The notes under the pieces were generated by a model. That model was not told the origin of the DNA and did not search any database. It saw only the letters and a list, made by a program, of their open reading frames with translations. A stretch of DNA of 64,000 bases, from the IMG/VR virus record IMGVR_UViG_2913167280_000003, positions 27,299-91,298 of that record. One strand, 5' to 3'. The translations under genes and the position numbers were made by a program. This document shows positions 18,579 to 36,089 of this stretch, one piece after another. This DNA is from a virus (lineage: Duplodnaviria > Heunggongvirae > Uroviricota > Caudoviricetes). Each line of letters opens with the position of its first letter. Position 1 is the first letter of the stretch.

Positions 18579-20306
18579 TTACTCAGAGTCACCAGCATCA
18601 ATCGTGTTACCGGTCAGGAAGTTAATTCCGCCATTTTTGGCCATAGTCAGAGTTACACGGGTGAAGTAGTCAGCACCGTTGCGTGGATGCATATCGTTGA
18701 TAGCAGAACCCCACAGAGTGGTTCGGTTGACCAGTGCCGGGGTGGTCGGATGCTGGAATGGGATAGCTGGGACCGCATCACCAGTCACGAAGCCTGCCTT
18801 GCCCGGATTTTCATCACGGACGTAGCACAGCACATCCATCGGGCTGAACTGGATACCTTCGGCGGTCAGGTTCGTGCAAATACCCTCAGGTACTTCGTAC
18901 ACCTTCACGTTACCGAACAGGGTGCCGATGAAGTGAACGTACGGAGTCTGGGTATAGTCTTCAGCTGGCTGGAAGAAATCCTTCGGAAGCTGTTTGAAGA
19001 AAGATGCTGCATCAGCACCAGCAAACATCCCCATCGCACCAGAAGATTTAACGCGCTCAATAATGTCGCGATATACAGTCTGGAATTTGCCGCGAATGAT
19101 GGTTGCCCATACATCAAAGGATTGGTTAACCGGCAGAGCGATGTCAAAGGAGTCGGTCGCAAGAGTACGCCAGATCATGATGCGAAGACGCAGCATATCC
19201 TGTTCATGAGACAGGTATTCCTTCAGGGTGCGGAACTGTAGGGAACCCAGGTCCAGACCAAACTCACGCTGTGCTTCATACGCCGCCTGTACCGTGTGCT
19301 CAGCCGCGATAACGAACTGGCTTGGGAACAAGGTGTATTTCTTCATTTCGTGGTTGATCAGCGGGATAAGCTCAGGAGCGGCTTCAATATTGATTTCCGT
19401 CTCAATTGCGATCTCAGTGCCTTTATCCGGCGCTTTGGAGAACGACAGGGCAATCTGACCAATGTTGTAGTTCAGAGAGCAGGTAACAGTGATTTGCTCC
19501 CCAGCAGCATTAGTAAACGAGTGAAGTAGGCTGCCGGAGCCGTTATCAACAACAGACTTAATACGGTTAACGTAGATGTTAGTGCGACCTTTGCGAATTG
19601 GGACATTCTGGCCTTCGAAGTCTTCCATCTTGAAGGTTGCGGTTTTGCTGGTGCCATCGGAGCTTGCCACCAGCACATAGCGGCGGCGTAACTGGCTGTA
19701 CACACCAACGGACTGCATGTCCAGAACATCACCAGCAGCATAAGAACCAAAAGAAGAACCCGCCACGTTAAAGACTTCGTAGATGTCGGACTGGTCACGC
19801 GTAACCGGAATGAAGGTACACGCATCAGCGGTAGCTGCCCCCAACTGAACAGGCAGGATCATCGCCAGGAATAAAGGCAGACGCATAACACCGTCAGAAA
19901 CACTCATCATCTCTGCCGCGACTGATTCCAGCATCGCTTTATTGGTGGAGTCCATGCTATTGCGGGTGGACTCAATCAGGCAGTTTTCCAGCGTCTGGTG
20001 GCAGGAGGCCAGAATTTCCGGACGCGGCATAGATTTATGTGTTGCGGCATAGTCAGCCAGTGCACTTGCCCATGCGGTAGCAATTTGAGCGGTGGCATTA
20101 TCAGAAATACCCGCAAAAATCGGGTCTTTGCGTGCAGCTTCAAGGATAGATGCGGCACGCGCGGCATCATCTTTGATGAATTGGTTATCAGTACCGAACT
20201 GTGCTGTACTTGCCCAGCCAAGAACGGCTTTAGAGCGTTTTGCGATATCTGCAATACGATTCTGGTATTCGCGTAAGTTACTCAAGTTACTCTTCCTTAA
20301 ACACAA
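18579..20306 (-). CDS. major capsid-sized structural protein (575 aa; P1 gp23 position)
   Basis: Size and synteny only (adjacent to parS/parB as P1 gene 23). Confidence 0.5.
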   Translation of the reverse strand: MCLRKSNLSNLREYQNRIADIAKRSKAVLGWASTAQFGTDNQFIKDDAARAASILEAARKDPIFAGISDNATAQIATAWASALADYAATHKSMPRPEILASCHQTLENCLIESTRNSMDSTNKAMLESVAAEMMSVSDGVMRLPLFLAMILPVQLGAATADACTFIPVTRDQSDIYEVFNVAGSSFGSYAAGDVLDMQSVGVYSQLRRRYVLVASSDGTSKTATFKMEDFEGQNVPIRKGRTNIYVNRIKSVVDNGSGSLLHSFTNAAGEQITVTCSLNYNIGQIALSFSKAPDKGTEIAIETEINIEAAPELIPLINHEMKKYTLFPSQFVIAAEHTVQAAYEAQREFGLDLGSLQFRTLKEYLSHEQDMLRLRIMIWRTLATDSFDIALPVNQSFDVWATIIRGKFQTVYRDIIERVKSSGAMGMFAGADAASFFKQLPKDFFQPAEDYTQTPYVHFIGTLFGNVKVYEVPEGICTNLTAEGIQFSPMDVLCYVRDENPGKAGFVTGDAVPAIPFQHPTTPALVNRTTLWGSAINDMHPRNGADYFTRVTLTMAKNGGINFLTGNTIDAGDSE

Positions 20307-30232: not shown

Positions 30233-30698
30233 CAGGGTTTTCGTCATGGTTAGCGACTTTGCGGCGGTTTAGAAACTGACCATTAAAGTAAATGCAAACG
30301 ATGATCTGATGATGGTAGCGGCCTAAGAAGCCTGACGCCACGGGGTATGAGTCGTCCCCCGTCAAAAAATCGACCGCAGAGTGTCCCCGTCTGTGTATTA
30401 GGGAACGGGGAGGCATAACAGGCAAGGGCGCTGGTTCGATTAACCAGATGAGCGAGAAGGGGCCATCTCTTTGGTCAGCGTCCTTACCTGTTACGTCCTT
30501 TTTCATTCGGCGTAACAGCAATTGCTTTTAGTAATTTGAGGATAATTTCTTACTACGGGTATATCCCGTCATGCTGAAAGCGCTAATCACGCTGGAAGCC
30601 AGGGTTATGCATCCCCTGTTACCGAATTGCAGCTAGGGCGCGGTGCGCCGAAAAGCATACGGAGGTGGAAGCCCTCGCCGGAGACGTACCCGGCAAGT

Positions 30699-30741
30699 GA
30701 TGGTGTAGCTCAGCGGTTAGAGCGTCTGCCTTGTAAGCAGT
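30699..30741 (+). tRNA. 5' portion of a tRNA-Thr(UGU)-like gene (acceptor 5' strand, D-arm, anticodon arm)
   Basis: GATGGTG-TA-GCTC-AGCGGTTA-GAGC-G-TCTGC-CTTGTAA-GCAG: canonical D-arm and anticodon loop CTTGTAA; sequence then diverges from tRNA. Confidence 0.4.
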
Positions 30742-30750
30742 GGGATACTG

Positions 30751-31170
30751 ATGAAAATTTGTAGCAAATGCAAAGCACTAAAACCTGCTTCCGATTTCCA
30801 TAAAAACAAAGGAAAGAGCGATGGCCTGCAAAATATTTGCAAGGTGTGCGCCAAGGAAAGAGATGCTCTGAGTTATGCAAGCAATGAATCAAGGCGCCGG
30901 CTTATAAAGTTAACAAGAACGAGAAAAACAAGCTCAAACCGTCAGTTTTTATCTCGTTATAAACGCTTCATCGGGTGCCAAAATTGTGGAGAAAAAGAAC
31001 CTATAGTTCTGGACCTCCACCATGATAACCCTGGCGGCAAAGAAGGCGATCCTTCTAACCTATGTAGTCGATCTCGAAAGCGACTTAAGGAAGAAGTAAG
31101 GAAGTGCATTGTCCTCTGTGCGAATTGCCACAGAAAAGTCCACGCAGGTTTATTGGATATAAAGAAATAG
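30751..31170 (+). CDS. HNH endonuclease (139 aa) with N-terminal Cys-rich zinc-finger-like region
   Basis: HNH motif (LDLHHDNP...NLCSRSRKRL...CANCHRKVH) and CxxC pairs (CSKC, CKVC, CQNCG). Confidence 0.7.
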   Translation: MKICSKCKALKPASDFHKNKGKSDGLQNICKVCAKERDALSYASNESRRRLIKLTRTRKTSSNRQFLSRYKRFIGCQNCGEKEPIVLDLHHDNPGGKEGDPSNLCSRSRKRLKEEVRKCIVLCANCHRKVHAGLLDIKK

Positions 31171-31202
31171 CTACGGCGGTTCAATTCCATCAACCATCAC
31201 CA
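31171..31202 (+). tRNA. putative 3' portion of the same tRNA (T-arm, acceptor 3' strand, CCA)
   Basis: GGCGG-TTCAATT-CCATC T-arm (4/5 pairs), AACCATC pairs 6/7 with GATGGTG at 30699, discriminator A, encoded CCA. Confidence 0.3.
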
Positions 31203-31376
31203 TATACCAATGTGATGATTCTGCCGGTACGACTCTGACATCTATTCCTCGAAACGGAGTGCACAACAGATAAGAGCATTTGTAGAGTTCGACTCTCTAC
31301 CGTGGGCTTTTTCCCGCGATGTGCGCCATAGATGCTCTTTCCGTTGTGGCGAATGCGGCTGAGCGCACGCGGGGAG

Positions 31377-31790
31377 ATGAAAAAGAAACATCTGTTGATT
31401 GCTGGTGACGTGCTGTTTGCCCTGGTTGCGCTCAGCTTGTGCGACCGTGACGGCCCGGCACCGGTAATCGTCGCTCAGCCATCCGCGCCGGGAGGGGGCC
31501 ACTATTACGATAACAGCGGGGTCTTCAGCGACTTGCTGATGGGACACCTGATGAGCGGTGGTGGCTATGGACACAGCAGCAATATCAACATCACGCATCA
31601 TACGACCGTCATTAAAAACTACCATCCGGCGCCGCGCTACAACGCCACCAGCGACCAAACGCTATTATGGCTCCAGCTCGTTCGCGCGCCGCTCAACCGT
31701 TACGTCGCCTCCGATGCGTTATATCCGTCCGAGCTAGAGCCGCCACTGATGGTTATGCCCCTCCATCGTGGGGCTGTTTATTTGCCGTAA
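31377..31790 (+). CDS. putative lipoprotein (137 aa; Plp-like)
   Basis: RBS GGGGAG, start MKKKHLLIAGDVLFALVALSLC with lipobox L-S-L-C; Gly/His-rich mature part. Confidence 0.6.
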   Translation: MKKKHLLIAGDVLFALVALSLCDRDGPAPVIVAQPSAPGGGHYYDNSGVFSDLLMGHLMSGGGYGHSSNINITHHTTVIKNYHPAPRYNATSDQTLLWLQLVRAPLNRYVASDALYPSELEPPLMVMPLHRGAVYLP

Positions 31791-32463
31791 CACTCTTCTG
31801 GTTAGGGCTAATTGAGCCAACATCATTTTGCGTAGTGTTAACCTTTTCCCCTGGCACGGTTATATCTACCATTTTATAAAGTCCTTTTCTCAGACCTGTT
31901 ACGGCATCACCGTTAAAGAGTCCCCATATTGCAAACAAAAGGCCTATTGAGAAGGCTGTGGCAAAAAGTTTTGGTACACCAGAAAAAAGAAATTTTAATA
32001 TGGCAATCCCATAGACTTGGGCACATTCCCAAAACCCCACGGGTTTCTTTATTTGCTTGCTGTATTTTTCTGCACCTTTAACCAGCTGCTTTATAGCATT
32101 TTTGTTTGCCTCATCTTTCTCTTTCTGGAGGGCTTTGATTTGGTTTTGATAAATATTCTCTTGCTGCTCAAAAATTGTTTCTAACCTTGTCTGCAACTCG
32201 TTGTTGACGCCAGAAACGTATCCATCTAAAATTTCCTGTGCGCTTCTTTTAAATACTTGAAGCTGCCTCGGTGACTTGAGGCATTGATCGTGGTAGGCCG
32301 CAAGCTCAGCCTCAATCTCGTATTCTTTTTTACCGGCCGCGCGAGCGTTACGAGCTATTTCGTCCTTAAAACCTTTATAAACCGCATACGAAAGAAGCTG
32401 CTCAATATTATTTGGATCTTTTACCAGCTCAGTAAAAATCCATTTCTTTGTTTGCTGAGTCAT
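31753..32463 (-). CDS. AT-rich accessory membrane protein (236 aa; soluble helical N-domain, 2 TM near C-terminus)
   Basis: Helical charged N-terminal 150 aa, then hydrophobic segments (VYGIAILKFLFSGVP, FATAFSIGLLFAIWGLF); AT-rich. Confidence 0.5.
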   Translation of the reverse strand: MTQQTKKWIFTELVKDPNNIEQLLSYAVYKGFKDEIARNARAAGKKEYEIEAELAAYHDQCLKSPRQLQVFKRSAQEILDGYVSGVNNELQTRLETIFEQQENIYQNQIKALQKEKDEANKNAIKQLVKGAEKYSKQIKKPVGFWECAQVYGIAILKFLFSGVPKLFATAFSIGLLFAIWGLFNGDAVTGLRKGLYKMVDITVPGEKVNTTQNDVGSISPNQKSVTANKQPHDGGA

Positions 32464-32516
32464 GTTTCACCACAATAAAAAAGCCACTTCAAAGGAGCTT
32501 GTAAATATCACGTTGG

Positions 32517-32849
32517 TTACGCTTTTTTATTTTTACGAACCTGATTAAACGATTCTTGAATATATTCCCGCCCGCTGCTCTGTGATAGGACGGACATTGC
32601 TAATTGACGAGACAGGCTGGAAGCCTTTGCATCCCGTGCTGATGCAGCTGCTACTTTACGGACAGTTTGGCTATCGCCTTTACGACTAACTTCATTTTTT
32701 TTGCCTGCAATCACGCCTGCAACGGCAGCCTTTACAAAGGCCGTTTTGTTAGTAACAATTTTTTCCGCAGCGACCGTCGCCACGGCATTCTTCGAAATTT
32801 TACGAATTTCTTCCGGGCTGAGGGCTGGCATACGACGAACTGTGGTCAT
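32517..32849 (-). CDS. small basic Ala-rich protein (110 aa)
   Basis: ORF in track; Lys/Ala-rich; no motif recognised. Confidence 0.4.
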   Translation of the reverse strand: MTTVRRMPALSPEEIRKISKNAVATVAAEKIVTNKTAFVKAAVAGVIAGKKNEVSRKGDSQTVRKVAAASARDAKASSLSRQLAMSVLSQSSGREYIQESFNQVRKNKKA

Positions 32850-32966
32850 TTTTCGCTCCTCTTTACTTCTCCTCAGTCTAACATTTGCGAAAATATTTGT
32901 ATATTTTTTAGCGCGCTTTATATGGGATTGTGGGAGGCGCTTTCAGGGCCAAAAATCATTATCGAA

Positions 32967-36089
<3,123 letters not shown>

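Follow-up and report, generated by a model that had tools for sequence, protein, structure and literature searches.

Free-standing homing endonuclease genes are expected between genes, and those that lie within genes are cushioned by an intron or an intein. Nearest in kind to the case dealt with here are HNH endonuclease genes of the phages ENT3, DU_PP_I and Felix O1, which are free-standing, lie in transfer RNA (tRNA) clusters and end 1-8 nucleotides (nt) before an intact tRNA; the order in Felix O1 is tRNA-Gly, HNH gene, tRNA-Thr(UGU), and FSL SP-107 has Gly, 6 nt and Thr at the same place. A different type of example is SegB of phage T4, a GIY-YIG homing endonuclease encoded in the T4 tRNA gene cluster, for which both activity and homing have been shown experimentally; its recognition site includes a conserved tRNA sequence, the T-psi-C motif, and its homing is accompanied by loss of tRNA-region markers from the recipient (PMC2330249). 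The present locus is in a 64,000-nt stretch of a P1-like (Punavirus-type) phage-plasmid (positions 27,299 to 91,298 of the IMG/VR record IMGVR_UViG_2913167280_000003; the whole stretch is termed the window). Here an HNH gene of the tRNA-cluster family sits bare inside a tRNA gene, contrary to expectation. We consider it probable that an intron-less HNH homing endonuclease gene, of free-standing type, was copied into the body of a phage tRNA gene and inactivated the tRNA. No description of an HNH-in-tRNA arrangement was found in literature searches. A bare homing gene of tRNA-cluster type inside a dispensable phage tRNA gene, and crossing phage families, appears to be an undescribed variant and not a new class of element.

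The original prediction, made from the sequence alone, was of a tRNA-Thr(UGU)-like gene split by an HNH endonuclease open reading frame (ORF), and its anatomy is as claimed. On reading the sequence, a canonical tRNA 5' part is present at 30699-30741 (GATGGTG-TA-GCTC-AGCGGTTA-GAGC-G-TCTGC-CTTGTAA-GCAG-T), followed by an HNH ORF of 139 amino acids (aa) and, within 31171-31202, by T arm, acceptor 3' strand and CCA. The first four nt of that last interval are CTAC, and the tRNA 3' part proper (31175-31202) is GGCGG-TTCAATT-CCATC-AACCATC-A-CCA. The acceptor strands GATGGTG and AACCATC pair at 6 of 7 positions, the mismatch being G7.A66. Between tRNA nt 43 and nt 49 there are 433 nt, 420 of which are the ORF, the sole gene in the insert; the earlier doubt about room for a group I core was well placed.

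The ORF matches PHROG 2255 'HNH endonuclease' (expectation value, E, 6e-39), the match to Pfam HNH being only at E 0.25. It consists of an N-terminal CxxC...CxxC zinc ribbon and an HNH (beta-beta-alpha-Me) domain. Invariant in an alignment of 28 homologues are C4, C7, C30 and C33 of the zinc ribbon, as well as C76, C79, H90, H91, C123, N125, C126, H127 and H131. With a confident AlphaFold model (pLDDT 91.8), the catalytic motif, the zinc CxxC pairs and the matching fold of an HNH endonuclease are all present. Compared to the lambdoid copies described below, synonymous divergence (dS) is 0.44-0.49 and its ratio with nonsynonymous divergence (dN/dS) 0.14-0.16, with substitutions spread over the whole ORF. 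The comparison argues for purifying selection, and places the constraint at the level of the protein and not of an RNA structure that overlaps the ORF. ENT3 and DU_PP_I have the nearest phage homologues (63% identity), with Felix O1 ORF47 at 57%. More widely, a tRNA is within 1.2 kilobases (kb) of the relative at 39 of 80 viral loci, and at 22 of the 80, which include nearly all closer relatives, an intact tRNA starts no more than 30 nt from the HNH stop codon. As a separate observation, the HNH ORF of many relatives (L087, L095-L097, L101, L083/84, L086 and others) extends 10-30 nt into the downstream tRNA gene. At several loci where that gene is for tRNA-Thr the overlap is 10 nt, and judging from the coordinates the stop would fall at U8-A9-G10 (TAG).

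The same cassette is present in tRNA-Thr(UGU) genes of four other phage contexts, in keeping with the homing-endonuclease insertion that was one of the two readings originally offered. These are lambdoid prophage contigs (L035, L036, L119 and L120). Proteins 86-87% identical to that of the window led to such contigs, and two of the four were added by a metagenome scan. The mobile unit is GGATACTG, probably a ribosome-binding site and replaced by GGATACCG in some P1-like copies, together with the 420-nt ORF and CTAC. The right junction, TAG-CTAC-T arm, is identical in 5/5 contexts, and a tRNA-Thr(UGU) 5' half is upstream in every one. These 5' halves vary among contexts only at D-loop positions 16-17 (TA, AA, CT, CA), as expected if resident alleles were invaded separately. 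Insertion 'just 3' of the anticodon stem', as first described, fits the P1-like copy but not the lambdoid copies. The latter are without nt 38/39-48, i.e. the anticodon-stem 3' strand and variable loop, and therefore no excision could restore their tRNA.

Empty alleles are also available for comparison. The tRNA halves of L035 are identical to the intact tRNA-Thr(UGU) allele of Klebsiella phage 5 LV-2017, which is downstream of a late antiterminator gene, and the upstream flank is shared too. The match continues to tRNA nt 37 and resumes at nt 48, with 439 nt replacing 10 nt. The downstream flank of Klebsiella phage 5 recurs in L036, in L120 and in the window, and the locus is therefore known in both a filled and an empty state. 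P1-like plasmids are likewise polymorphic for the cassette. Among the sequences that match, the insert is carried by only 7 of 422 PLSDB records and by only 4 of 439 E. coli genomes, an intact Asn-Thr tRNA pair being the state of most P1-like plasmids. One P1-like copy (L037 1-260; GCA_907172385.1, contig CAJSCP010000030.1) has lost roughly the initial third of the ORF together with all of the 5' tRNA part. The replacing sequence is unrelated and resembles the end of an insertion sequence transposase gene, with the remainder forming a chimeric 134-aa ORF; the cassette is thus already decaying in some carriers.

Table. Features of the window around the interrupted tRNA gene, and left junctions of the cassette in its five contexts (position 1 is the first nucleotide of the window).
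Feature	Position	Strand	Basis or detail
Leader homologous to the P1 ban-operon leader	30011..30698	+	93% identity; P1 annotation
Acceptor 5' strand, nt 8-9, D arm and nt 26, all of tRNA-Asn origin	30699..30724	+	26/26 identical to P1 trnA nt 1-26
tRNA-Thr(UGU)-type anticodon arm, nt 27-42	30725..30740	+	TCTGC CTTGTAA GCAG
TGGG, left over from a tRNA-Asn allele of E. albertii type (its nt 43-46)	30741..30744	+	three-way comparison
Cassette 5' end, GGATACTG	30743..30750	+	common to all five contexts
HNH endonuclease ORF, 139 aa	30751..31170	+	ATG 30751, TAG 31168-31170
Cassette 3' end, CTAC	31171..31174	+	identical in five contexts
T arm, acceptor 3' strand, discriminator, CCA	31175..31202	+	phage tRNA-Thr type
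Downstream flank of lambdoid-type tRNA-Thr	31203..31261	+	matches Klebsiella phage 5 LV-2017, L036 and L120
Hairpin module, CACAACAG...CCGTTGTG	31262..31348	+	right-hand homology with P1-like plasmids; outside the cassette
Left junction, window (P1-like plasmid)			CTTGTAA GCAG TG GGATACTG ATG
Left junction, L035 (upstream: Q antiterminator)			CTTGTAT TGACCAA GGATACTG ATG
Left junction, L119 (upstream: Q antiterminator)			CTTGTAA TGACCTA GGATACTG ATG
Left junction, L036 (upstream: N6/N4 methylase)			CTTGTAA TGGCCAA GGATACTG ATG
Left junction, L120 (upstream: N6/N4 methylase)			CTTGTAA TGACCTA GGATACTG ATG

Targeted homing is not the only way to arrive at such a distribution. A tRNA-cluster HNH gene could have been trapped between tRNA fragments by illegitimate recombination, with the block later spread only through ordinary recombination between prophages. 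That relatives are normally between tRNA genes and not inside them would suit such a scar, as would the variability of the left junction among contexts, the patchwork nature of the window tRNA and the standing of the protein's endonuclease activity as a prediction. Nevertheless, we judge it unlikely. Five different flanks share the 3' junction, and the interrupted gene is always tRNA-Thr(UGU), with halves that match the local alleles in a manner fitting repeated invasion of resident genes; the identity of the L035 halves to the intact Klebsiella phage 5 allele is of this type. The selection evident on the protein, and its intact catalytic residues, also speak against such a scar.

Splicing was the other reading originally offered, and it is not supported. 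On that reading a homing endonuclease ORF is housed in a self-splicing intron (of group I or another type), and the ligated halves are a working tRNA-Thr(UGU). The two halves are collinear with pairing acceptor strands, and in its intron mode ARAGORN calls a tRNA-Thr(tgt) at 30699-31202. A hand-made excision (30741|31171) is accepted by the program as a 75-nt tRNA-Thr, the boundaries happen to fit the group I rule (U before the 5' splice site, G as last intron base), and a precedent is the endonuclease-bearing group I intron of cyanobacterial tRNA-fMet (cited in PMC3984707). However, Rfam 15 cmscan at E<=10 gave no Intron_gpI or group II match in window positions 29500-32500 or in L035/L036. 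The non-coding part of the insert is only 13 nt (9 before the ORF and 4 after), where a ribozyme needs about 200 nt or more, and synonymous sites diverge freely over the ORF. The intron-mode solution of ARAGORN takes GCAGG from within the ORF and works only with a variable arm of 26 nt. Excision of the insert from the window leaves a product mismatched in three of four stems (G7.A66, T27.T43 and C51.A63) with a 4-nt variable loop, and the folding of the region as a whole does not stand out (z -1.9).

The lambdoid copies also bear on splicing. With nt 38/39-48 missing, no join yields a real anticodon stem, the best having 2 Watson-Crick pairs and 1 G-U pair of 5, and the intron mode of ARAGORN returns nonsense anticodons (Gly, Trp). 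When deletion joins were tried exhaustively, many in the window yielded a tRNA-Thr call; in the lambdoid copies only four equivalent joins were called, with the anticodon stem broken. Neither a detectable core, nor sufficient non-coding RNA, nor a canonical tRNA upon removal was found, and we hold a self-splicing intron to be very unlikely. In L035/L036, CCTTG is followed downstream by CCAAGG, which resembled the P1 helix of a group I intron; this candidate was dropped because L119/L120 have CCTAGG and the window has none. A narrower proposal is that the ORF-filled insert is removed from RNA in the P1-like copy alone, by an unrecognized route, to give a working mosaic tRNA-Thr(UGU). That copy alone among the contexts retains the whole anticodon arm, and the route might be a ribozyme wholly within coding sequence or cuts by host nucleases followed by RtcB-type ligation. 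We consider this very improbable indeed; if true, such removal would be the first bacterial tRNA intervening sequence without a recognizable intron core.

What the insert interrupts is not simply a tRNA-Thr gene. The label of tRNA-Thr(UGU) is apt for the anticodon arm and the 3' piece, which are of Thr type, but the acceptor 5' strand and D arm are from tRNA-Asn. The alignment to the P1 tRNA region that was originally suggested bears on this. It gives homology as far as 30724, i.e. 26 nt into trnA, and beyond that point the trnA 3' part and trnT are gone. The anticodon arm is 16/17 identical to P1 tRNA-Thr (trnT) and like that of other phage tRNA-Thr, and a 21-mer from the region, GAGCGTCTGCCTTGTAAGCAG, was found in 22 intact viral tRNA-Thr genes. 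The TGGG that follows, identified with reference to the tRNA-Asn of an E. albertii P1-like plasmid (L004), shares two bases with the start of the cassette. On the other side, the 3' piece is 25/28 identical to the allele of L035, L119, L120 and Klebsiella phage 5, and together with about 70 nt of flank it matches the intact gene of the latter at 84.8% over 99 nt (E 6e-27). The flank at 31203-31261 is absent from P1-like plasmids without the HNH gene, and by this comparison it arrived together with the cassette. The resemblance of both pieces to tRNA is, from such alignments, homology and not chance.

The three differences of the 3' piece from the donor allele (A57, A63 and T71) are all the tRNA-Asn base (P ~9e-4). 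Each of the stem mismatches in the joined halves listed above falls where an Asn-type patch meets one of Thr type, and A63 breaks a T-stem pair, so the three changes are not compensatory as a set. In this light the 6/7 acceptor pairing is due to both strands being largely Asn-derived, and not to selection. The alignments thus identify the window 'tRNA' as a recombination mosaic of P1-type tRNA-Asn and phage tRNA-Thr, an inactivated pseudogene. No uninterrupted allele of this mosaic emerged from exact 28-mer and 21-mer scans of viral contigs or from scans for the junctions in viral, genome and metagenome collections, which gave only interrupted copies and unrelated intact tRNA-Thr genes. ARAGORN finds no tRNA gene in the whole 64-kb window; an intact tRNA-Thr elsewhere, raised originally as a possibility that would tell against the split-gene interpretation, is accordingly not there by that program. 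The Rfam tRNA model matches the 5' part only, with 25.2 bits against a gathering score of 29, and the locus has no contiguous cloverleaf at curated thresholds such as a functional tRNA would have.

Might the halves be of use as RNA without being joined? A split tRNA might be put together from them in trans; alternatively, the 5' half might be a decoy or processing signal that would benefit the phage or drive HNH expression. The minimum free energy fold does pair the two acceptor strands across the insert, and the 5' half is retained in 5/5 contexts. Yet we know of no bacterial machinery that makes or uses split tRNAs, the lambdoid copies are without an anticodon stem, and the T stem is damaged in both the window and L036. 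Retention of the halves is already explained by their serving as homology arms for homing, and we give a role as unligated RNA next to no credence.

Returning to insertion by homing, the following sequence of events is proposed. The landing site would span the anticodon stem, variable loop and T stem of a tRNA-Thr(UGU) allele found nearly unchanged in P1-like, lambdoid and other temperate enterobacterial phages. The enzyme would cut the uninterrupted allele of a co-resident phage or prophage, and repair of the break from the gene-carrying allele would copy the cassette and some flank. In doing so the cassette would replace nt 38/39-48 in lambdoid phages, or nt 44-48 in the window, probably removing the recognition site and so protecting the carrier. 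Phage tRNA-Thr alleles share GAGCG(C/T)CTGCCTTGTAAGCAGGATGTC(A/G)GCGGTTCGA, part of which the cassette replaces, and E. coli thrU differs there at many positions; both carriers and the host gene would therefore be spared. Phage-borne tRNA genes are dispensable, which is why no intron would be needed and why a bare position inside one is tolerated. Transcription is probably from the C1-controlled ban promoter, by homology to P1. This mechanism, likely on present comparisons, is drawn by analogy from the HNH family and SegB (PMC2330249).

For the window itself, a P1-like plasmid with an Asn-Thr pair of the E. albertii type (L004) may have recombined with a lambdoid donor of an interrupted tRNA-Thr. 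The left crossover would lie within the D arm, which hardly differs between tRNA-Asn and tRNA-Thr, with the neighbouring tRNA-Asn gene as homeologous partner, and the right crossover in the CACAACAG module; the window has 92.9% identity to L004 from 31246 onward. If the heteroduplex between these homeologous sequences was then repaired in patches, an Asn/Thr mosaic would result, and with it a pseudogene; the 3' part of P1's tRNA-Asn, and its tRNA-Thr, would have been deleted.

Several points weigh against homing into the tRNA gene as the explanation. The proposed target site is deduced solely from what the cassette replaced, and cleavage and homing are predictions. From the anticodon loop to the ribosome-binding site there are 6-7 nt that vary among contexts (GCAGTG; TGACCAA; TGGCCAA; TGACCTA), so that the left junction does not reduce to one clean point of insertion and some secondary change has to be supposed. 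The carriers found number only about a dozen, mostly near-identical P1-like plasmids. In addition, the pairing of T71 with A2 would allow T71 to be taken for a compensatory change, and acceptance by ARAGORN of a 75-nt tRNA-Thr upon exact deletion of the insert makes residual function conceivable for the P1-like copy.

Other candidates were considered and set aside. For an insertion sequence or transposon, there are no terminal inverted repeats or target-site duplication at the borders (repeat search of 30690-31215), and no transposase. An integrative element in a tRNA gene was rejected, there being no integrase, and the tRNA pieces being complementary halves and not attL/attR duplicates. TAGCT after the ORF, as U8-A9-G10 of a second, internally deleted tRNA, was treated as chance because there is no acceptor strand upstream.

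One practical consequence is evident in annotation. The RefSeq record NZ_CP046005.1 has a 99-nt 'tRNA-Thr' at 19240-19338, corresponding to 30702-30800 of the window, that spans the 5' tRNA half and the first 50 nt of the HNH ORF, while the ORF itself carries no annotation. This RefSeq/PGAP tRNA-Thr is an artifact of the split gene; at least one RefSeq record thus has a spurious tRNA and an omitted HNH gene.

The setting of the locus is that of the P1 ban operon. Upstream, the dmt methylase gene ends at 30022, and 30011-30724 is 93% identical to the P1 ban-operon leader (P1 68665-69373), which according to P1 annotation contains C1-controlled Pban promoters/operator and a dicF-like region. By this homology the leader is likely the source of transcription of the locus; a simple scan for promoters gave no match to the sigma-70 consensus within 29900-31900. 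The order in P1 after the leader is trnA (tRNA-Asn), 2 nt, trnT (tRNA-Thr), plp, upl, tciABC, trnI and ban. Downstream in the window, at 31332-33575, plp-upl-tciABC-trnI-ban are replaced by unrelated ORFs of 152, 236, 110 and 202 aa that are hypothetical in RefSeq, the sole match being a 228-nt stretch against a Cronobacter phage. Sequence comparison thus shows the lineage to be rearranged downstream of the locus.

Attention is also drawn to two nearby features. The hairpin module recurs just downstream of phage tRNA-Thr genes, with constant outer arms (CACAACAG...CCGTTGTG), a stem of about 19 base pairs (bp) that has 6 covarying pairs, and interiors of 45-65 nt that are wholly unrelated, some of them T-arm-like; the internal hairpin of the window copy, at 31282-31300, is of this kind. 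Other copies are in P1 (L001 3339-3425, overlapping the 3' end of the annotated plp coding sequence on the opposite strand), L003 (1592-1659), L004 (1165-1251 and 1657-1743), L022 (403-491 and 538-621) and L120 (3484-3585). More than 400 plasmids match the window copy at 92-95%, and there is no Rfam match to the module. Either a stable structured RNA, transcribed along with the tRNAs, or an inverted-repeat element at the DNA level could account for it. The second feature, between the dicF-like region and the tRNA locus, is a frame at 30294-30326 (+), GCAAACGATGAT...GCGGCCTAA, that encodes ANDDLMMVAA* and resembles the tag of transfer-messenger RNA (tmRNA). It is identical in P1 (L001 2780-2812) and unannotated there. 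Rfam matches around it, at 30197-30364, are weak (tmRNA_permuted with 24.1 bits, E 0.03, and beta_tmRNA); ARAGORN calls no tmRNA at the frame and no paper on it was found.

For specialists in phage evolution and homing endonucleases, the interest is in the tRNA-Thr(UGU) allele as a site. Being common to P1-like, lambdoid and other temperate phages, it would be a portable landing pad across unrelated phage families, a view that also explains the loss of P1's tRNA-Asn/Thr pair in the window lineage. If activity is confirmed, the protein would be a tRNA-gene-specific endonuclease with a definable target of about 30 bp.

How, then, does the locus compare to systems already known? P1 trnA-trnT (NC_005856) has the same position, with dmt, the ban promoter/operator and the dicF-like region directly upstream. 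The first 26 nt of the window tRNA are those of trnA, but P1 has two intact tRNAs 2 nt apart where the window has one interrupted Asn/Thr mosaic. The cyanobacterial tRNA-fMet group I introns (PMC3984707) are alike in that a tRNA is interrupted near the anticodon by an endonuclease-coding sequence, and in that the endonuclease probably targets the uninterrupted tRNA gene. Those introns have a ribozyme core, are inserted in the anticodon loop and splice to a complete tRNA. For the window insert, a core is undetected, there is no room for one and parts of the exons are missing in most copies. Fractured genes are alike in having a homing endonuclease gene, without an intron, between two halves of a host gene; those halves encode split inteins and the protein is restored by trans-splicing (PMC2677866), whereas the window tRNA has no known restorer.

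The endonucleases of phage tRNA clusters are also to be compared. SegB is likewise a homing endonuclease of free-standing type whose gene lies among phage tRNA genes, but it is GIY-YIG and not HNH, segB is between tRNA genes, and the activity and homing of the window enzyme are predictions. Felix O1 ORF47, of PHROG 2255, belongs to the same protein family as the window gene (tblastn E 1e-38). As in the window, genes of the Felix O1 type are on the same strand as the tRNA, with their stop codon abutting tRNA sequence, often that of tRNA-Thr(UGU), and their presence or absence differs between close relatives. However, they are intergenic, sitting between intact tRNAs in virulent phages (Felixounavirus or Vequintavirinae), whereas the window-type gene is found in temperate phages (P1-like and lambdoid), inside a tRNA gene that it destroys.

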